Shown here piece after piece: positions 34,367 through 41,482 of a stretch of DNA of 64,000 nt. Under the pieces are notes generated by a model that was not told where the DNA came from, did no database searches, and saw only the letters and a program-made list of their open reading frames with translations. This DNA is from Escherichia phage AV108: sequence record OR352938.1; one strand, 5' to 3'. Position numbers and translations under genes: made by a program. Every line of letters starts with the position of its first letter. The first letter of the stretch is position 1.

Positions 34367-34380
34367 CACTTTTTATAAAA

Positions 34381-34548
34381 TTATTTGTTAATTTCTGGTG
34401 CGTTGCTAGGATAGTAACCTTCTTTAACTCCGAGGTATTTCGCAACCATCCCTACAATCTTCTGTGCTACTACAATGTCAAATTTAAGATAATCTTCGCC
34501 GTGGGTTTCAATGATATATGCTTCACATGCTGCTTTAGTCTCGAACAT
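34381..34548 (-). CDS. hypothetical small protein (55 aa), paralog of 37663-37830
   Basis: Almost identical at protein level to the 37663-37830 ORF (EAYI...HGEDYLKFDIVVAQKI.GMVAKYLGVKEGYYPSNAPEINK). Confidence 0.5.
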   Translation of the reverse strand: MFETKAACEAYIIETHGEDYLKFDIVVAQKIVGMVAKYLGVKEGYYPSNAPEINK

Positions 34549-34581
34549 TTTGATTCTCCTATTTAGTTTCGTTATGTGTGC

Positions 34582-34610
34582 ATTATAGGGGATCTCCCGA
34601 TCCCCGTCAA
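34582..34610 (-). promoter_or_regulatory. sigma70-like early promoter with palindromic spacer (PeSL-type)
   Basis: TTGACG - GGGATCGGGAGATCCCC - TATAAT on minus strand. Confidence 0.6.
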
Positions 34611-34624
34611 CAACTTTTTTAAAA

Positions 34625-34906
34625 TTATTCGTGATTAGTTTCGATGTTGTGTATTTTGCACCAGTTCAGCCAATCGCCAAGATCCTGATAGTTGATGCTT
34701 TTATCTGCTGCCATCGTTTTTGTCTTGATACCCATATGTGCGTTATGGGTAAGCATTTTTACAGTGAACTCAATTTTATCGCCTTTAGCTTTAACATCAA
34801 CCAGTTTGGTCCACTGGCTACCAGCGCCTCGAATGTTCATACCAACGATGTTTCCGATGTATGCTTCTTTGTTTTTCAGGATTTCGGTTGCTTTGATGAA
34901 TTTCAT
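34625..34906 (-). CDS. hypothetical protein (93 aa)
   Basis: ORF with GGAGAA RBS downstream of promoter 34940-34968. Confidence 0.5.
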   Translation of the reverse strand: MKFIKATEILKNKEAYIGNIVGMNIRGAGSQWTKLVDVKAKGDKIEFTVKMLTHNAHMGIKTKTMAADKSINYQDLGDWLNWCKIHNIETNHE

Positions 34907-34976: not shown

Positions 34977-35246
34977 TTAGATATTTTCAGAAATAAATTT
35001 TAAAACTTGACGTAAATGTTTCTCATCTTTGATAGTCGCCGGAAGTTCTTCTTTTACTTCCTGTGCAAGATAGATATTTCCGTTCCAAGTGAAAGATCCG
35101 TCTTCGTTTACGCGATAGCTGAACATCCACTCGCAATCATTTTCGATTTCATATACACACAGAAGGGTGTAATCGTTAAAGCTATTGATTTCAAGGTCGA
35201 AGCCGTGACGTTTTGCAAAGTTGGTAGTGGTTTTAGTCAGCGCCAT
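34977..35246 (-). CDS. hypothetical protein (89 aa)
   Basis: ORF with GGAGAA RBS downstream of promoter 35287-35315. Confidence 0.5.
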   Translation of the reverse strand: MALTKTTTNFAKRHGFDLEINSFNDYTLLCVYEIENDCEWMFSYRVNEDGSFTWNGNIYLAQEVKEELPATIKDEKHLRQVLKFISENI

Positions 35247-35286
35247 TGTTTGATTCTCCTAAGTGGTATCTCGTTTCGATGGGTGT

Positions 35287-35315
35287 ATTATGCTATAGGC
35301 GTGATCTGGTGTCAA
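35287..35315 (-). promoter_or_regulatory. sigma70-like early promoter (TTGACA-17-CATAAT)
   Basis: Minus-strand -35/-10 pair. Confidence 0.55.
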
Positions 35316-35340
35316 CAACTTTTTTAATTTTTTGGAAATA

Positions 35341-35363
35341 AAAAAGCCGACACTAAGGTCGGC
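35341..35363 (-). terminator. rho-independent terminator (GCCGAC-loop-GTCGGC)
   Basis: Hairpin with minus-strand U5, after the 35372-35680 gene. Confidence 0.6.
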
Positions 35364-35371
35364 TAATAAAA

Positions 35372-35680
35372 TCATTTAGACAAATAATCATTCAGTGCAA
35401 TCCGGTCGGCGTATGCTGGTGTTACGTCAATCGCAATCACTTTAACGCGTGCTTTCTTGCGACCTGGGTTTTCTCGTAACCAGTGCTCATGACCGTGAAC
35501 ATTTTTATACTTTGATGCTTCTTCAAATGTACGGATCGGACCTGGATAATCTGCGTAAAGGATCTCTAGGTCTTCGGTGATGTAAAAATATACATCATAA
35601 TTACTGTTCTCTAGTTTAAGCAGAGACTTTCTGAACATTGGGAGATTTTCGCGGGTAAATTCAAAGATATTATCTTTCAT
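35372..35680 (-). CDS. small early protein, HxHW paralog family member 1
   Basis: 102 aa; C-terminal HGHEHWL...VIAIDV shared with five neighbouring ORFs. Confidence 0.55.
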   Translation of the reverse strand: MKDNIFEFTRENLPMFRKSLLKLENSNYDVYFYITEDLEILYADYPGPIRTFEEASKYKNVHGHEHWLRENPGRKKARVKVIAIDVTPAYADRIALNDYLSK

Positions 35681-35704
35681 AGTATTATCCTCAATAGTTT
35701 GATG

Positions 35705-35728
35705 AAAAGGGGTGGGGCTTAACGCCCC
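35705..35728 (-). terminator. rho-independent terminator (GGGGC-TTAAC-GCCCC)
   Basis: Same hairpin as at 31688; minus-strand U-run follows. Confidence 0.55.
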
Positions 35729-35733
35729 GTATA

Positions 35734-36021
35734 TTAAAACAGTCCTTCCTGTACACCGTAGTAGAGTTCATCGCTGATAATTTCATTAATGCGACGGTGT
35801 GCATATTCCTGATTTGCGAAGTTATCAGCAAGTTCTACTTTAGTTTCGCCGTCATGAGTCCATTTAGTGATAACTTTACCATCTGCAAATTTGAAGTTGA
35901 ACTCTTTAGCTACTGCATCACGTACCAGACGTGCGAACTTGTTGTTACGGATTGCATTATCGGTTTCGTGTGCAGCGTGAGCGAATTTATTAACTTTCAG
36001 AGTGATAGTAATGTATGCCAT
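35734..36021 (-). CDS. hypothetical protein (95 aa)
   Basis: ORF with GGAGAA RBS downstream of promoter 36068-36096. Confidence 0.5.
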   Translation of the reverse strand: MAYITITLKVNKFAHAAHETDNAIRNNKFARLVRDAVAKEFNFKFADGKVITKWTHDGETKVELADNFANQEYAHRRINEIISDELYYGVQEGLF

Positions 36022-36067
36022 AAGTTGATTCTCCTAGTTAGAAAGTGTATCTCGTTTCGATGGGTGT

Positions 36068-36096
36068 ATTATGCTATACACCCGATCTTATGTCAA
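36068..36096 (-). promoter_or_regulatory. sigma70-like early promoter (TTGACA-17-CATAAT)
   Basis: Minus-strand -35/-10 pair. Confidence 0.55.
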
Positions 36097-36102
36097 CACT
36101 TT

Positions 36103-36381
36103 TTATAAAATAATTTTTTGATATTTTTCTATGATGTTTGTGTAGGTCACGTCAACCGCTAGCACCGTTGCTTCGAATCCACCGTTTAACCAATGGCTAT
36201 GATCATGATCGTGAAAGAAACCTAGACCAGTACGAAGACCTTCTTTATATTCGGAGCGTACATTTAGATCATCATCGATAAACAGATAAAACCATGAATT
36301 TTTACTAGGATTGATGATACAACCTTTCAGATTAGGGAGAATATCACGACTAAGAATAAACTTATCACCTACTTTGAGCAT
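36103..36381 (-). CDS. small early protein, HxHW paralog family member 2
   Basis: 92 aa from ATG 36381 (GAGG RBS); HDHDHSHWL...VLAVDV. Confidence 0.5.
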   Translation of the reverse strand: MLKVGDKFILSRDILPNLKGCIINPSKNSWFYLFIDDDLNVRSEYKEGLRTGLGFFHDHDHSHWLNGGFEATVLAVDVTYTNIIEKYQKIIL

Positions 36382-36404
36382 AATATTTTCCTCACTTATA
36401 AAGT

Positions 36405-36704
36405 TTAACTGTTGTTTTTCTCGTAATGCTGAATGCGTGCTTGATCTGCTTCCGCTGGTGATAGATTCCATGCAACCACTACAACTTCTGACGCATCGTC
36501 ATCCGTTTTTGATACCCAATGATTGTGATTCATACAGTTATTTGCTATCGAGTGAGCAAATGATTTCATCACTGGAGACGTATAATCATAGTAACGGATT
36601 TTCAGATTTTCATCAACGTACAAATAGATCGTATAAGGTTTATATTCAGTAACCAGTAACAGACAGTTACGCAATTCTGGGAAAATCTTTTTAGTTAATT
36701 TCAT
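36405..36704 (-). CDS. small early protein, HxHW paralog family member 3
   Basis: 99 aa from ATG 36704 (GAGGA RBS); NHNHWV...VVVVAW. Confidence 0.5.
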   Translation of the reverse strand: MKLTKKIFPELRNCLLLVTEYKPYTIYLYVDENLKIRYYDYTSPVMKSFAHSIANNCMNHNHWVSKTDDDASEVVVVAWNLSPAEADQARIQHYEKNNS

Positions 36705-36705
36705 T

Positions 36706-36924
36706 TTATAATCCTCGGTCGCGGCTATAGTACACGGTACGCCATACAATTTCATGTTTCGTGTCGCTCCAGCACACGATCTCATTTACTCTTAAATCTT
36801 TGTTATCAACAAAAGATGAACATTGTGACGCTTCTTTCATCATTTTATCTGCTGTTTTCTCATCAAATACAGCACAGATTTCTTTATACACTCGATAATC
36901 TTTGAATTGACTCTGGATACCCAT
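36706..36924 (-). CDS. hypothetical small protein, paralog of 36884-37147
   Basis: Shares FK.Y..Y.......F.EKMM..AS.C.SF pattern with the adjacent ORF; start codon uncertain. Confidence 0.4.
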   Translation of the reverse strand: MGIQSQFKDYRVYKEICAVFDEKTADKMMKEASQCSSFVDNKDLRVNEIVCWSDTKHEIVWRTVYYSRDRGL

Positions 36925-37147
36925 AATTAACACCATTCCAACCAATTGTTTTTGAGAAAACGTTTATCCACTGTTGAGTGTAGCATGTTTCTTTCCATGA
37001 TACAATACGAGTAGAATAATGGTTTTTGTTTCCAGAAAAGGACGGGCATTTTGATGCATCTTCCATCATCTTTTCGGCGAACTCTGGTGCGTATACTCGC
37101 AGGATCTGTTGATATGCTTTGTATTCTTTAAATTTGCTCATAATCAT
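36884..37147 (-). CDS. hypothetical small protein, paralog of 36706-36924
   Basis: 87 aa; overlaps neighbours at both ends; boundaries uncertain. Confidence 0.4.
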   Translation of the reverse strand: MIMSKFKEYKAYQQILRVYAPEFAEKMMEDASKCPSFSGNKNHYSTRIVSWKETCYTQQWINVFSKTIGWNGVNYGYPESIQRLSSV

Positions 37148-37406
37148 TCACTACCTTATCAGCTTCTTTTGTTGTTTTTACATCAACTGCGATAACTCGT
37201 AAAGGTTCGTCATGGTTCCACCAGTGGTCATGAATATCAGCTTGTGATTTATCACCAAAGGAATCACGAATATCATTTTTACATTTATAGCTAATGTGAC
37301 CTTCATAGTCAACATAAAGGTAATTATCGAAAATCGGCGTTTTTAAGATCATACCGAAAAATCTTTCTTTGTGTGTCTTATCCAGCGTTGCAGTAATTCG
37401 CATCAT
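37128..37406 (-). CDS. small early protein, HxHW paralog family member 4
   Basis: 92 aa; IHDHWW...VIAVDV. Confidence 0.5.
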   Translation of the reverse strand: MMRITATLDKTHKERFFGMILKTPIFDNYLYVDYEGHISYKCKNDIRDSFGDKSQADIHDHWWNHDEPLRVIAVDVKTTKEADKVVNDYEQI

Positions 37407-37418
37407 AATATATTCCTC

Positions 37419-37598
37419 TTAGAAAGGGATGGTCATTTCTTGAGCTTGTACATTCTCGTTAGGATTAAACTTCATCCAACCGATATTGTCTACCAGCATA
37501 TGCACATTTTTATCATATCCTACGTGGGTAGTCAATACTGTATGTGCTTTACCTTCAATGATGAGTTCCATGTACTTCTGAACTTCGATAGCTTTCAT
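37419..37598 (-). CDS. hypothetical small protein (59 aa)
   Basis: ORF with GGAGAA RBS downstream of promoter 37631-37659. Confidence 0.4.
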   Translation of the reverse strand: MKAIEVQKYMELIIEGKAHTVLTTHVGYDKNVHMLVDNIGWMKFNPNENVQAQEMTIPF

Positions 37599-37630
37599 TT
37601 TGATTCTCCGTTTGTTGTCTTGATGGGAGT

Positions 37631-37659
37631 ATCTTACTACTCCCTTTAATCATTGTCAA
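37631..37659 (-). promoter_or_regulatory. sigma70-like early promoter with palindromic spacer (weaker -10)
   Basis: TTGACA then GGGAGTAGTAAGATACTCCC palindrome with TAAGAT as -10. Confidence 0.4.
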
Positions 37660-37662
37660 CTA

Positions 37663-37830
37663 TTATTTGTTAATTTCTGGTGCGTTGCTCGGATAGTAAC
37701 CTTCTTTAACACCAAGATATTTTGCAACCATTCCGGTGATCTTCTGTGCTACTACGATATCGAATTTCAGGTAGTCTTCACCGTGGTTTGCTACAATGTA
37801 CGCTTCGCATTCTGCTTTAGTCTGGAACAT
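37663..37830 (-). CDS. hypothetical small protein (55 aa), paralog of 34381-34548
   Basis: ATG at 37830; about 85 percent nucleotide identity to the 34381-34548 copy by eye. Confidence 0.5.
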   Translation of the reverse strand: MFQTKAECEAYIVANHGEDYLKFDIVVAQKITGMVAKYLGVKEGYYPSNAPEINK

Positions 37831-37864
37831 TTTTGATTCTCCTATATCTCGTTGGTATGTGTGC

Positions 37865-37893
37865 ATTATAGGGGATCGGTGATCCCCTGTCAA
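37865..37893 (-). promoter_or_regulatory. sigma70-like early promoter with palindromic spacer (PeSL-type)
   Basis: TTGACA - GGGGATCACCGATCCCC - TATAAT on minus strand. Confidence 0.65.
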
Positions 37894-37898
37894 CAACT

Positions 37899-38192
37899 TT
37901 ATAATGCTTTATATGCGTATTTCATAAATTTGTCTGCCACTTCATTGGCATGTTCAGATTCTACGCCTGATTCGAGAACAATAGCTAGGTCGGTTTCGTC
38001 ATTCCCGCCGTACCAATGATTTGATGTTCGATTTTTTTCAATTGGAAATTGGTCACTTTTATCTGTGCGACAAAATACATCTAAATGCTCGTCGATGTAA
38101 AAGATCCAATCTTCATAAAGAATAACGGTATTAGCAAGATTTTTATTGCCTTCAACGAAAGGTTCGGCTACAAACAAATTAGTATGTTCCAT
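37899..38192 (-). CDS. small early protein, HxHW paralog family member 5 (divergent)
   Basis: 97 aa from ATG 38192 (GAGG RBS); SNHWYGG...AIVLE. Confidence 0.45.
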   Translation of the reverse strand: MEHTNLFVAEPFVEGNKNLANTVILYEDWIFYIDEHLDVFCRTDKSDQFPIEKNRTSNHWYGGNDETDLAIVLESGVESEHANEVADKFMKYAYKAL

Positions 38193-38208
38193 AGTATTTT
38201 CCTCAAAA

Positions 38209-38400
38209 TTATACAGCTTCGTAAACTTCCCAATGTCCAACACCAGCACGCTTAACGAAAAGGTTTTCTTTGATGTTATTCATAAACGTCTGGATGGATT
38301 TAATGCGATTTGAAGGTTTCCAGTCTTCGTTGGCATTGCGTCGATACATCATAACATTACCAGTTCGCTTATATTCAGCAACCATTTTAAGACCACACAT
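38209..38400 (-). CDS. hypothetical protein (63 aa)
   Basis: ORF in compact minus-strand array. Confidence 0.35.
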   Translation of the reverse strand: MCGLKMVAEYKRTGNVMMYRRNANEDWKPSNRIKSIQTFMNNIKENLFVKRAGVGHWEVYEAV

Positions 38401-38457
38401 AATATTATCCTCAATTTGTGGGAGAGTATTACCCCTCCCAATGATTGTTATGTTATA

Positions 38458-38778
38458 TCACACAAAATGGCGTGTCAATGCTTCTTTTGCGGTTCCGCTA
38501 AGACTTTCGATCTCTCCTGGCATAACATCAACCGCCAGAACTTCTACAACATCCTCGGACCCTAACCAGTGAGTATGACCTTTGTAGAACTTAATAACCA
38601 GACTACCTTCCTCGTCCCATTTAACGCTATCGCTAGCCCACCACACATCACCGTCGATAAAGTTGATGTAAAGCACACTACGCCACATTGAATTAATTAC
38701 TTTCAATACTGCGCCTTTCATCTCTTCCACGGTATGGTCTTCCATTTTGAAGACCTCACCTACCTGAACTTTTGCCAT
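38458..38778 (-). CDS. small early protein, HxHW paralog family member 6
   Basis: 106 aa; GHTHWL...VLAVDV. Confidence 0.5.
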   Translation of the reverse strand: MAKVQVGEVFKMEDHTVEEMKGAVLKVINSMWRSVLYINFIDGDVWWASDSVKWDEEGSLVIKFYKGHTHWLGSEDVVEVLAVDVMPGEIESLSGTAKEALTRHFV

Positions 38779-38795
38779 TTAGTCACCTCTCTTTA

Positions 38796-38975
38796 TTACA
38801 TAACAATCACGCCAGCCGTTGAAAGTTGATGTTTCAACTGAGCATTTTCTGCTACCGTCAAATCAATGATTTCTTGTGACGCTGCAATCATATAGCCATT
38901 GGTGATATTGTTTTGCATCAGTTCAATGGTTTCTTCGTTGTAGCGGATTTTAGCGATGATTTCGTTGAAGTTCAT
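38796..38975 (-). CDS. hypothetical small protein (59 aa)
   Basis: ORF with GGAGAA RBS downstream of promoter 39010-39038. Confidence 0.4.
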   Translation of the reverse strand: MNFNEIIAKIRYNEETIELMQNNITNGYMIAASQEIIDLTVAENAQLKHQLSTAGVIVM

Positions 38976-39009
38976 AATTGATTCTCCTAGTTCGTTTCGG
39001 TATGTGTGT

Positions 39010-39038
39010 AGTATAGGGGATCACCGATCCCCTGTCAA
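39010..39038 (-). promoter_or_regulatory. sigma70-like early promoter with palindromic spacer (PeSL-type)
   Basis: TTGACA - GGGGATCGGTGATCCCC - TATACT on minus strand. Confidence 0.6.
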
Positions 39039-39050
39039 CAACTTTTTGAA

Positions 39051-39527
39051 TTATTTTTCTTGATGCTCGCGATCGTACTTTTCGAAATAAAATTCTACTG
39101 GCTGGTCGTGGATTGACAGCAAGCCAAAGCGTTTAGCCGCTCGCAATCCCATATTGCGCTGAATGTACTTCTGGAAGTTCTCGCGTATACACTTACGCCA
39201 GGATTCTAAGCCCATGCAGCTTTTATAAAGATTGCATTGCACACATGCCGGATTCATGTTATCAAGTATATCATGCTCCGGTTTATGCATTCCTACAACC
39301 TTATACTTCCACGATCCATCATCATTACGGGCAATTCGTCCATTTTCATCATAGACAACCTTTGAGCGTCGTAATACTGGTTTGATATGGTCTGCGTGCC
39401 AGCGATCCCCTAGTTCCTCGCCACAATAGGCACAACGTCCACCGTATTTCATTTTCAGGATCTGACGTTGCTCTTTCTTTGACAATTTTTTAGGTTTAGG
39501 GGCTTTCGCCCCTTCATTATCACACAT
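39051..39527 (-). CDS. HNH endonuclease
   Basis: CAYCG...HADHIKP...N...CVQCN fits the HNH Cys/His signature; start overlaps ligase stop by 8 nt; true start may be an internal Met. Confidence 0.65.
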   Translation of the reverse strand: MCDNEGAKAPKPKKLSKKEQRQILKMKYGGRCAYCGEELGDRWHADHIKPVLRRSKVVYDENGRIARNDDGSWKYKVVGMHKPEHDILDNMNPACVQCNLYKSCMGLESWRKCIRENFQKYIQRNMGLRAAKRFGLLSIHDQPVEFYFEKYDREHQEK

Positions 39528-41016
39528 CGAATACCTCTTTTACTGTATTTGCAGCGGTCTTGTCGTAGCGAATACGTTTGATGATCGGGAGAAATAAAGA
39601 GAACTCCGGTTCATCTTCTTTACGTGATTTGCTGCGAATGTACCCGTTGCATGTCATCTCGATGACTTTTCCAATCAGGTTATGACGGTCAGCCCATAAC
39701 ATTTCTCGGTCAAGTTCATTTCGACGATCGAACGGAATTACACGTTCGATACCATCATCACCTTTTTCGGTTGTAGTGTCGGTTAATCCCGATCCGGTGT
39801 TAGTCATCATTCGTCCACACGCACTACGGACAGTAAAACCGCCTACCTTATTGGGGTCTTTACTATGCGGATATACATCAACAATTTCCGCGTCGAAGTC
39901 AATCACTTCTTTAAATTTAACCTGATCTTTACTACGGCGATCTTCAAATACACCATGTAAATTTTTAAGGATAATACCTTCTAAGCCCATGTTGACATAA
40001 CGATGATATACTTCGCGAGCTTCATCGATATTGTTAACTACAGTGTTTTCGATGATCTGAACACGAGGATCGTTAAGTTCTTCAACAATCTGTTTTAGTT
40101 CTTCAAATCGATCTTTATATTGCTTCGTTGCTTTCTCGTTTCCGTAGTACACATCACGGTCGATAACATCCCAGACAGTGTAAACAATACATTGGGCTTC
40201 TTCTTTTGGAATAGTTCCTTTCAGTGATTTGTTGAGGATACCATTTCCGGTCTGACGGTCTGCAACAACGGATTCTTTCACTGCTTCCGCTACTGGCGTT
40301 AATGGCATTTCCTCTTCTTCAAATATCCATGACAGAGTACCATCATAAACGCTCTCAACGAAGTTCTGCGCTGGTGTTTGCGAAAGGGTAGGCATATATA
40401 CCAATTCACCATCTAGAACAATTCCACGGCCTCGTAGACGCTCTAAAACCGCAAACAAATCATCAAGTCCTTGATAGGTATTACCTGAGCGGGTATAGAT
40501 TGCTAATGTTTCCCCGTCAATATCAGCCATACCACGAGCGCCATCGCTTTTAAGTTGTGCATACGCCGGATACTTGATATTAGCAATAGTCTTATCAGAA
40601 CATGACGATGCAAGGTGACACGGTTGCTGGGGGATCAGTTTCTTCCATACCTTGTTTGCAGTGGTAGCGGAACAACCACATTCCAGATCACGATTCAGGA
40701 CCATCATTGCAACTTTAGCATCATCTTCTGACAAGCAAGTCAGAGTATCGGTAACTAGCTGTAATGCTGCGTTACCAGTTACTTGACGCGTGGCAAGTTT
40801 ATTTTTAAAGACCTGTAATGCACCGGATAAAGACAATACAGACGAATAGCGAGATGGTTTATCGTATTTCTTTACGCCAAACGTAACCTGTTTGCAATAT
40901 GCCAGATAAAAGCATTCTTTCAGTGTTTCATTGCTTGCAGATTCTTTCAGGATCTTTTCTTTCAGCGATGTTTTGTCGGTCGCTGCAAGCTGGTTAATGA
41001 TATTAAGAATTGACAT
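39520..41016 (-). CDS. 30: ATP-dependent DNA ligase (T4 gp30-like)
   Basis: KSDG adenylation motif (AQLKSDGARGM) and collinearity with T4 ligase as recalled; ATG at 41016 (track start 41022 is GTG). Confidence 0.88.
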   Translation of the reverse strand: MSILNIINQLAATDKTSLKEKILKESASNETLKECFYLAYCKQVTFGVKKYDKPSRYSSVLSLSGALQVFKNKLATRQVTGNAALQLVTDTLTCLSEDDAKVAMMVLNRDLECGCSATTANKVWKKLIPQQPCHLASSCSDKTIANIKYPAYAQLKSDGARGMADIDGETLAIYTRSGNTYQGLDDLFAVLERLRGRGIVLDGELVYMPTLSQTPAQNFVESVYDGTLSWIFEEEEMPLTPVAEAVKESVVADRQTGNGILNKSLKGTIPKEEAQCIVYTVWDVIDRDVYYGNEKATKQYKDRFEELKQIVEELNDPRVQIIENTVVNNIDEAREVYHRYVNMGLEGIILKNLHGVFEDRRSKDQVKFKEVIDFDAEIVDVYPHSKDPNKVGGFTVRSACGRMMTNTGSGLTDTTTEKGDDGIERVIPFDRRNELDREMLWADRHNLIGKVIEMTCNGYIRSKSRKEDEPEFSLFLPIIKRIRYDKTAANTVKEVFDV

Positions 41017-41482
41017 TTTCACCTCGTTTTGTTAAACGTTCACGAATATCATTGAGGATACTACAAAATTCCGATTCAGTCAATATAGTCTTTAACGGAT
41101 CAGTTCCACCTATGCTATGACGCAATTTCTTATTTCCGGTAGCGAGTAATGCTTTACAAAATTCTGGGTTATTCCGTGCCATCGTAACAAATGCCAGATG
41201 TACCAGTCTGTAATAATGCTCACTCATTCGATGAATAGGGCGACCCTGAAAATATAACATGTGATTCTCAATCTTTTCAGTTCTTCCGGTTCTTTTTGCT
41301 TTGCCACCGTGCATCAAAAAGATTTCTCTTTGTCTCTGAGGGTTCTTAAATCTTAGCCCCTGTAAAAATCCTTCTGTGCTGTTAATATCGCAACCAAATA
41401 GACGGAATGGTCTTTTATTGAAATTACTCAATTCACCCGATGGATAAGGTCCACCCGCATAGATATCAATTTCAGAAGTCAT
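41003..41482 (-). CDS. NADAR (YbiA-like) domain protein, putative
   Basis: 159 aa; GELSNF, STEGFLQGLRF, ALLATGNKKL.HS parallel the YbiA/NADAR pattern as recalled. Confidence 0.5.
   Translation of the reverse strand: MTSEIDIYAGGPYPSGELSNFNKRPFRLFGCDINSTEGFLQGLRFKNPQRQREIFLMHGGKAKRTGRTEKIENHMLYFQGRPIHRMSEHYYRLVHLAFVTMARNNPEFCKALLATGNKKLRHSIGGTDPLKTILTESEFCSILNDIRERLTKRGENVNS

Follow-up and report, generated by a model that had tools for sequence, protein, structure and literature searches.

Multi-paralogue loci of the internal-protein (IP) type are thought to be adaptive or defensive against host factors, and the IPs themselves are packaged in the phage head and carry a capsid-targeting leader. 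In T-even phages such loci, which are mentioned in a study of RB49 and phi1 (PMC2839356), bring together several diverged small paralogues in a plastic locus. That study describes a further arrangement, in which small orphan open reading frames (ORFs) lie as cassettes between sigma-70-like promoters with G/C stem-loops; these regulatory cassettes, flanked by promoter-early stem-loop (PeSL) elements, are associated with the gain and loss of ORFan genes, and both promoter and terminator activity of PeSLs were demonstrated for RB49 and phi1 (Arbiol, Comeau, Krisch and co-workers, 2010; PMC2839356). Here, we describe six small genes, termed A to F, located at positions 35372-38778 of a 64,000-nucleotide (nt) stretch of Escherichia phage AV108 (sequence record OR352938.1; this whole stretch is referred to below as the window), which sequence comparisons confirm as members of a single homologous family with a conserved His-x-His-Trp (HxHW) motif.

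The window represents an RB49-like Krischvirus genome, and hence a T4-type coliphage of the Straboviridae. A megablast search with positions 35000-39000 matched 58 phage records, the closest being Escherichia phage FL37 (98.2% over 100% of the query; RB49 96.4%), and every matched record examined is classified in the genus Krischvirus. The six copies span 3.4 kb on the minus strand. They lie in a variable early region bounded by the DNA ligase gene (gene 30) and alt, in which all genes are co-oriented. The corresponding interval of T4 contains only one ORF of 62 amino acids (aa), alt.1, and for this reason the locus is one of the expanded 'hyperplastic regions' known from RB49 and phi1 (PMC2839356).

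The six genes resemble the RB49 and phi1 ORFan cassettes in that they belong to the same phage group and are small orphan ORFs situated between strong sigma-70-like promoters with G/C stem-loops. Unlike these cassettes, they are constant in number and order and take no part in the presence/absence differences observed, and no PeSL directly precedes any of them. With the IP loci they share the presence of several diverged small paralogues in a plastic locus; in contrast to the IPs, however, the six proteins have no evident capsid-targeting leader, are encoded in putative early sigma-70 units and show no sequence relationship to IPs. Word searches of PMC2839356 returned no mention of the HxHW paralogous family.

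Ever since the deposition of the RB49 genome, GenBank has listed the products of these genes as hypothetical proteins, and the type of locus has already been described. In the literature on RB49 and Krischvirus, we found no description of the five PHROGs concerned as one six-member family with a motif, a fold, old subfamilies and a fusion. The present analysis merges these five 'unknown' PHROGs into such a family, with an invariant motif, a confident predicted fold that has no solved counterpart, old subfamilies and purifying selection. The six genes can be counted among the multigene families for small early accessory proteins that are specific to a lineage and reside in the hyperplastic regions of T4-type phages.

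Six genes of one family

In order of transcription, the six genes are F (38458-38778, 106 aa), E (37899-38192, 97 aa), D (37128-37406, 92 aa), C (36405-36704, 99 aa from the ATG at 36704), B (36103-36381, 92 aa) and A (35372-35680, 102 aa). Their RB49 orthologues, RB49p208, p206, p203, p200, p199 and p197, respectively, are all annotated as 'hypothetical protein'. An earlier note on this DNA had placed six ORFs at these positions; all are indeed present, on the minus strand, and every ATG is preceded at a distance of 6-9 nt by a ribosome-binding site of the GAGG type. The note's description of them as a tandem array does not hold, as nine unrelated small ORFs are scattered among the six copies and the sole adjacent pair is C and B.

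The proposal that the six ORFs are paralogues is borne out by sequence comparison. Pairwise BLASTP aligns A with C at an E-value of 1.7e-13 (residues 6-99 against 1-94), and A, B, D and F with one another at 1e-4 to 1e-6; identities among the six copies are only 14-30%. The alignments span from about residue 5 to about residue 95 and include the N-termini, contrary to the suggestion in the earlier note that the N-terminal thirds are unrelated. When leave-one-out profile hidden Markov models were run on the complete set of 614 ORF segments from the six-frame translation of the window, the omitted copy was the top non-training match for A (1.5e-12), B (1.9e-7), C (5.7e-14), D (8e-7) and F (3.6e-7). 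For copy E the result was marginal at 0.0063, but it still was the top match, with unrelated ORFs at 0.17 or above. This weak score is accounted for by the allele in the window, which reads SNHW...ESGV; orthologues of E in other phages read THNHW...LASDV and align over their full length, which confirms the sixth copy as a family member.

The motif itself, put forward as HxHW...A(V/I)DV common to all copies, stands in part. Five of the six window copies contain HxHW, namely F (HTHW, aa 68-71, nt 38566-38577), D (HDHW, nt 37221-37232), C (HNHW, nt 36516-36527), B (the HSHW part of HDHDHSHW, nt 36190-36201) and A (the HEHW part of HGHEHW, nt 35480-35491). Copy E carries a degenerate SNHW (nt 38013-38024) and ESGV, and copy C has VVAWNL rather than A(V/I)DV. 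HxHW is found in 99 of 104 database cluster representatives, the others being three subfamily-E members with S/DxHW and two truncated fragments. Two His and one Trp are the only invariant residues, and there is no conserved Cys. In the six-frame translation of the window (51,718 residues) the pattern H.HW is confined to family ORFs, and the same is true for all six frames of the complete 162-kb RB49 genome, in which the family profile detects exactly six members, all of them in this cluster.

The statistical support for motif and family, resting on the leave-one-out profiles and on the uniqueness of H.HW in the window and in RB49, bears directly on the notion that the copies resemble one another only by chance or through their composition, or that the ORFs are non-coding. 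The weak leave-one-out score of the window's E (0.0063) is the one observation that would fit this notion. It is refuted by leave-one-out E-values down to 6e-14, by the restriction of the motif to family ORFs in six frames of 64 kb and 162 kb, by the ribosome-binding sites, by confident AlphaFold cores, and by a dN/dS well below 1 with substantial dS (see below), and we give it next to no credence. The BLASTP, profile and orthologue evidence confirms, at the level of sequence, that the six ORFs are real genes of one homologous family, which arose by repeated duplication of one ancestral gene, as the earlier note had proposed.

In the PHROG database, the six proteins are distributed over five families, 16486 (F), 15965 (E), 15972 (D), 17255 (B) and 9345 (both A and C), all annotated as 'unknown function'. 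The matches are full length, with E-values of 6e-49 to 2e-73, covering 1-92/106 of each profile. Secondary matches connect B and D weakly to 9345, and F at a borderline E-value of 0.01 to 17255. What are five separate unannotated families in PHROG are here one family with a common HxHW motif and a common predicted fold.

Distribution and age

A word-seeded search of 5.8 billion proteins yielded 90 clusters, each of them an at least 54% identical orthologue of one of the six proteins. A full HMMER scan of 1.84 billion representatives gave 23 matches, of which 21 are related to the family. The remaining two, P0102 (a repeat protein with a weak MAM hit below the Pfam threshold) and P0106 (NHL repeats), were rejected as sums of weak repeat matches, their best single-domain score being 10.8 bits with an i-E above 1e4. 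The related clusters comprise small phage proteins of 68-128 aa and one two-domain fusion of 203 aa (P0091).

Among 50,697 cultured-phage records, about 56 carry the family; their names and recorded hosts are Escherichia/Shigella, and those examined are Krischvirus. When the distant members P0096 and P0097 were compared with cultured phages by tblastn, only the same ~56 Krischvirus records were recovered, and a search for related loci with P0097 and P0095 found no viral contigs. As judged from these searches, the family appears to be restricted to Krischvirus and a few uncultured sister T4-type phages.

The distant members can be assigned to individual subfamilies, with identities of 50-52% for F-like, 33-56% for C-like, 29-61% for E-like, 38% for D-like and 28-32% for B-like proteins. 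Specific counterparts in more distant uncultured phages are clear for C, D, E and F, and less clear for B. On a 2.1-kb metagenomic contig (L002), four family genes stand in a row, of which the first is F-like, the second a B-B' fusion, the third D-like and the fourth C-like; the fusion (P0091, L002 823-1434) consists of two family domains with HNHW in each. A second contig of 20 kb (L004), with ~71% DNA identity to Krischvirus, contains two E-like genes, again between ligase and alt. Together with the subfamily counterparts, these contigs indicate that the duplications predate the lineages concerned, that the subfamilies are older than the genus and that the location is ancestral, and the existence of such counterparts in distant phages implies that the duplications are old and that each copy has been maintained. 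The number and order of the six genes are identical in seven other Krischvirus genomes (RB49, JK32, Skers, Brandy, SFHK24, ECD7 and ELT3).

Selection and variation

Pooled Nei-Gojobori estimates of non-synonymous (dN) and synonymous (dS) divergence were obtained over eight Krischvirus genomes, i.e. the window phage and these seven. The resulting dN/dS ratios are 0.20 for A, 0.09 for B, 0.13 for C, 0.16 for D, 0.21 for E and 0.13 for F, with dS of 0.12-0.41; for comparison, the ligase, HNH endonuclease and methyltransferase genes give 0.03-0.06. Such ratios in the presence of substantial dS identify the six as real coding genes under constraint, and at the gene-wide level selection is clearly purifying, not diversifying.

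These data weigh on the interpretation in the earlier note, repeated duplication with diversifying selection of proteins that target variable host factors, when it is read as a recent array shaped by an arms race. There are observations that it would explain. The dN of the six genes (0.013-0.087) lies above that of most neighbours, being 0.008 or less in 10 of the 15 other genes scored and up to 0.134 in the rest; protein identity is 87-100% for the family genes versus 97-100% for most neighbours; two allele classes of E are only 71-83% identical; and the region is a known hyperplastic one with PeSL-mediated shuffling (PMC2839356). However, the paralogues share only 14-30% identity, C, D, E and F have clear counterparts in distant phages (weaker for B), copy number and order are fixed in 8/8 genomes compared and in the whole-genome scan, and the gene-wide dN/dS is 0.09-0.21. 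The arms-race interpretation is largely refuted at the gene-wide level, and we regard it as very unlikely; a milder reading of the six as faster-evolving accessory genes survives.

The two allele classes of E deserve separate mention. The window phage, RB49, SFHK24, ECD7 and ELT3 share the SNHW/ESGV form and are 98-100% identical to one another. In JK32, Brandy and Skers, E has THNHW, combined with either LASDV or LESDV, and its identity to the first class is only 71-83% (window 37899-38192 compared with L007 8877-9179, L009 7757-8059 and L008 9098-9400). This pattern of sequences suggests allele replacement by recombination. Within subfamilies, variable positions are found mainly in the N-terminal strand, in the loops flanking HxHW and in the C-terminal helix; strands 2-4 and HxHW are largely fixed. 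Finally, JSE has a split version of A and kvi a truncated one, a sign that single copies can be dispensed with.

Predicted structure

Structures of A and E were predicted by AlphaFold2 with family alignments, and the two models were compared by the order of their secondary-structure elements. The model of A is confident (mean predicted local distance difference test score (pLDDT) 85.9, predicted template modelling score (pTM) 0.80) and that of E moderately so (mean pLDDT 76.3, pTM 0.73). Both models have the same order of elements, namely strand 1, (a short helix), a meander of strands 2-3-4, a long loop, strand 5 and a C-terminal helix, and the N-terminal strands are common to both. The conserved (Y/F)(L/F)YID strand lies within the 2-3-4 meander, and strand 5 is the VLAVDV strand. 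The HxHW motif is located in the long loop between strands 4 and 5, as a short helix in the A model and as coil in the E model. The sheet and the C-terminal helix are predicted with confidence. In both models confidence is lowest in the HxHW loop (pLDDT 59-68), which might be expected of a site that becomes ordered on binding something. Judging by these models, the family would have a small alpha/beta domain of ~95 residues with an apparently new fold.

Searches for known relatives of this domain returned little. A structure search of BFVD retrieved family members from kvi, PHB13 and JSE only; and Foldseek identified no PDB chain at E<=0.001, known anti-defence proteins with solved structures included, its top matches being non-significant metallo-beta-lactamase (MBL)-type fragments. 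In Pfam, the six proteins and 26 family members have no match at gathering score, with scattered sub-threshold hits to PROCT, TTL, Cupin_2 and T4_Y03C (E 0.1). A relationship to T4_Y03C was rejected, as the family profile finds nothing in the six-frame translation of T4 118-136 kb (best E 1.3). None of the 26 members matches a PADLOC-DB anti-phage-defence model at E<=1. A sequence profile search of the PDB gave only a non-significant match to Spindlin (Tudor-like; positions 4-42, E 0.17), and neither a complete GNAT acetyltransferase fold nor an acetyl-CoA binding motif was detected.

The HxH pair following a beta-meander with an '(L/I)D' strand end is reminiscent of MBL, HIT and cupin folds. 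The six could be small metalloproteins or metal-dependent enzymes, in which HxH and the Asp residues of 'YID' and 'DV' chelate Zn, Ni or Fe and support a hydrolytic or other reaction, for instance on a nucleotide signal. Consistent with this idea, the two His are the only invariant polar residues, the His runs are extended in A (HGHEHW) and B (HDHDHSHW), and one member has a weak match to Cupin_2 (E 0.2). The details nevertheless speak against it. At 92-106 aa, the HxHW domains are less than half as long as an MBL domain (>200 aa), and neither the HxHxDH motif nor an alpha-beta/beta-alpha sandwich of at least 200 residues is found; the motif has no Asp-His or Glu continuation. The HIT signature H-phi-H-phi-H-phi-phi on a beta-strand and the HIT fold are missing, and the residues between the His of the HxHW family are polar. 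The cupin motif GX5HXHX3-4E is not matched either, for want of the Glu continuation and of any Pfam match at gathering score. Moreover, the candidate acidic ligands vary, being T in A, N in F and C and G in the window's E, and the first His is missing in some E members that are still under constraint. We therefore consider a metalloenzyme role rather unlikely.

A different proposal gives the proteins an SH3-like (KOW/Tudor) barrel with which they would bind nucleic acids or ribosomes and, as regulators, modulate phage or host transcription or translation early in infection. A public automatic annotation of one B orthologue (P0076) reads 'KOW2-KOW3 domains of Spt5', the N-termini of B and F conform to a KOW-motif-like pattern, (K/Q)VG(D/E)xF...KG, the weak Spindlin match falls on positions 4-42, and the models have five strands in total. 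Yet none of the KOW or Spindlin matches is significant, and fold comparison gives no support for a five-stranded SH3-like barrel; the KOW-like N-terminal pattern is missing from A, C, D and E; and a pI of 4.5-6.8 with a net charge of 0 to -11 is unfavourable for nucleic-acid binding. On balance, this proposal is improbable.

Promoters and expression

On the minus strand between 34.3 and 39.1 kb, there are seven matches to TTGACA-17-TATAAT at 11-12/12 positions and two more at 10/12; those upstream of family genes, at 39038, 37893, 37659 and 36096, have scores of 10-12/12. The promoter matches coincide with a family of ~62-73-nt repeats, and PeSL copies are found at 39038, 37893, 36096, 35315 and further on. 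In two of these copies (39038 and 37893, with hexamer matches of 11-12/12), a GGGGATC...GATCCCC stem of -13 kcal/mol lies between the hexamers; in the 36096 and 35315 copies the promoter is present and the stem is weaker or absent.

These elements, all on the minus strand, divide the cluster into three putative units. The predicted PeSL early promoter at 39010..39038 (TTGACA-17-TATACT with the GGGGATC...GATCCCC stem) heads g38796 - F - g38209 - E. A second one at 37865..37893 matches sigma-70 at 12/12 positions, has its hexamers separated by a G/C stem-loop and overlaps the stop of E. It heads the next unit and, together with a weaker promoter at 37631-37659 (TTGACA-17-TAAGAT), would serve g37663, g37419, D, two PHROG-8471 paralogues, C and B. 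A PeSL-type promoter at 36068..36096 (TTGACA-17-CATAAT) follows the stop of B immediately and heads g35734 - A. Directly after the stop of A lies an intrinsic-terminator-like hairpin (35345..35364; 7 bp, five of them G-C pairs, then a T-run; -11.2 kcal/mol, z -4.8).

In T4-like phages, it is among the early genes that novel ORFs are concentrated (PMC1524935). Early expression of the six genes, as anticipated in the earlier note, is plausible and well founded on the 10-12/12 promoter consensus, the PeSL type of the promoters and the co-oriented position between ligase and alt. No Krischvirus transcriptome was found in the literature.

Possible function

How, then, might the six proteins act? 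As the most likely, though tentative, reading, we suggest that they are non-essential early binding proteins, in which the HxHW loop forms the core of the functional site and the variable flanks select subfamily-specific targets. The six ORFs would be anciently duplicated members of a lineage-restricted family of small soluble phage accessory proteins, each made of a single alpha/beta domain of ~95 residues with a long loop bearing His-x-His-Trp, followed by strand 5 and the C-terminal helix. They would be transcribed by host sigma-70 RNA polymerase from the PeSL early promoters of the hyperplastic ligase-alt region, and the copies would be individually dispensable, yet kept by purifying selection. 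Their mode of action would be binding rather than catalysis, with the HxHW loop as the common part of a site for a ligand, a metal or a partner. Two His per chain are too few for a metal site alone, so that the site may be completed across a dimer, an arrangement also suggested by the natural two-domain fusion. Each subfamily could be directed to a separate target by variable residues in three places, the flanks of the motif, the N-terminal strand and the C-terminal helix, and the six-gene set might then represent a standing repertoire of host-takeover or anti-defence effectors. The binding role, the dimer, the metal and the host or defence target are each something that we infer.

Phage anti-defence 'sponges' of solved structure, such as Tad1, Tad2 and Acb2, fall into a similar size class, are expressed early and probably bind as oligomers; the parallel is one of functional analogy only.

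Several observations weigh against the binding-protein reading. No functional, expression or interaction data were found in the literature for any family member. Some subfamilies have other residues in place of the acidic ones of 'YID' and 'DV', and with only two His and one Trp invariant and the acidic residues variable, a classical one-chain mononuclear metal site is not evident. Subfamily E tolerates loss of the first His. The proteins range in net charge from -0.2 to -11, and the family thus has no one surface property, such as DNA mimicry, in common. Each of the six genes is second or later in its unit and none directly follows a PeSL, which makes expression level dependent on read-through of internal hairpins, e.g. 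at 35700-35735. DNA mimicry as a family-wide property was set aside on account of the same range of net charge.

A bolder version combines a new fold with the pairing of HxHW loops across a homo- or heterodimer, which would generate a four-His/two-Trp pocket for a metal or a nucleotide-type immune signal. The six proteins would then act as a combinatorial set of sponges or inhibitors, directed in parallel at several host factors or E. coli defence systems, and the fusion protein would be a covalent dimer. This scenario is speculative and we think it a long shot; if true, Krischvirus phages could neutralise several such systems or factors simultaneously.

RB49-like phages are common in coliphage therapy collections and in defence-system screens, and more than half of their genes are orphans. 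The cluster offers a compact set of targets, six genes in 3.4 kb that can be removed as a block, in the search for new host-takeover or anti-defence activities. Should no activity emerge, it would still be a well-documented case of an ancient multigene family that is stably kept where genes are otherwise known to be shuffled rapidly.

Neighbouring genes and other paralogues

Upstream of the six-copy cluster lie the DNA ligase gene 30 (39520-41022) and, next to it on the cluster side, an HNH endonuclease gene (39051-39527), which shares 8 nt with the 3' end of the ligase gene, in RB49 (RB49p212) as well as here. The T4 gene 30-alt interval has no HNH endonuclease gene, and the metagenomic contig L004 has a 166-aa ORF without a Pfam hit at the corresponding position. 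Downstream of the cluster follows a run of further small ORFs, leading to alt in RB49.

Some of the genes interspersed with or flanking the family are themselves duplicated. A 55-aa gene of PHROG 8009 is present twice together with its upstream PeSL promoter, at 34381-34548 and 37663-37830, 3.3 kb apart (whole repeats 34380-34622 and 37662-37905), with 84% DNA identity over the coding part; this looks like the copying of a whole PeSL-plus-ORF cassette within the hyperplastic region. Between D and C, the ORFs at 36706-36921 and 36884-37147 are adjacent paralogues of PHROG 8471 (40% identity over 63 aa, E 8e-17). The upstream one has 87 aa and overlaps the downstream one in the window phage and in RB49; in the other six phages the match spans 69-70 aa only.

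Between B and A, g35734 (35734-36021; 95 aa; PHROG 7474, unknown function) is 100% identical in 8/8 Krischvirus genomes. With a dN of 0 despite a synonymous divergence of 0.14, it is the most constrained gene of the region, exceeding DNA ligase.

Relative to RB49, the window phage is without ORFan192 (477 nt) and without RB49p195/196/196.1 (window 34548-34625 and 35246-35372 versus L001 3332-3808 and 4617-5127). Both differences fall at junctions flanked by PeSLs, which transcription would reach shortly after A. ORFan192 is the gene shown to form PeSL mini-circles (PMC2839356).

All-against-all BLASTP detected further paralogue pairs elsewhere in the window, at 9760-11370/12023-13348 (24% identity), 43123-44028/47439-47942 (29%) and 28687-29541/29590-31671 (37%). 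By position, the last pair probably encodes ADP-ribosyltransferases of the alt/mod type.

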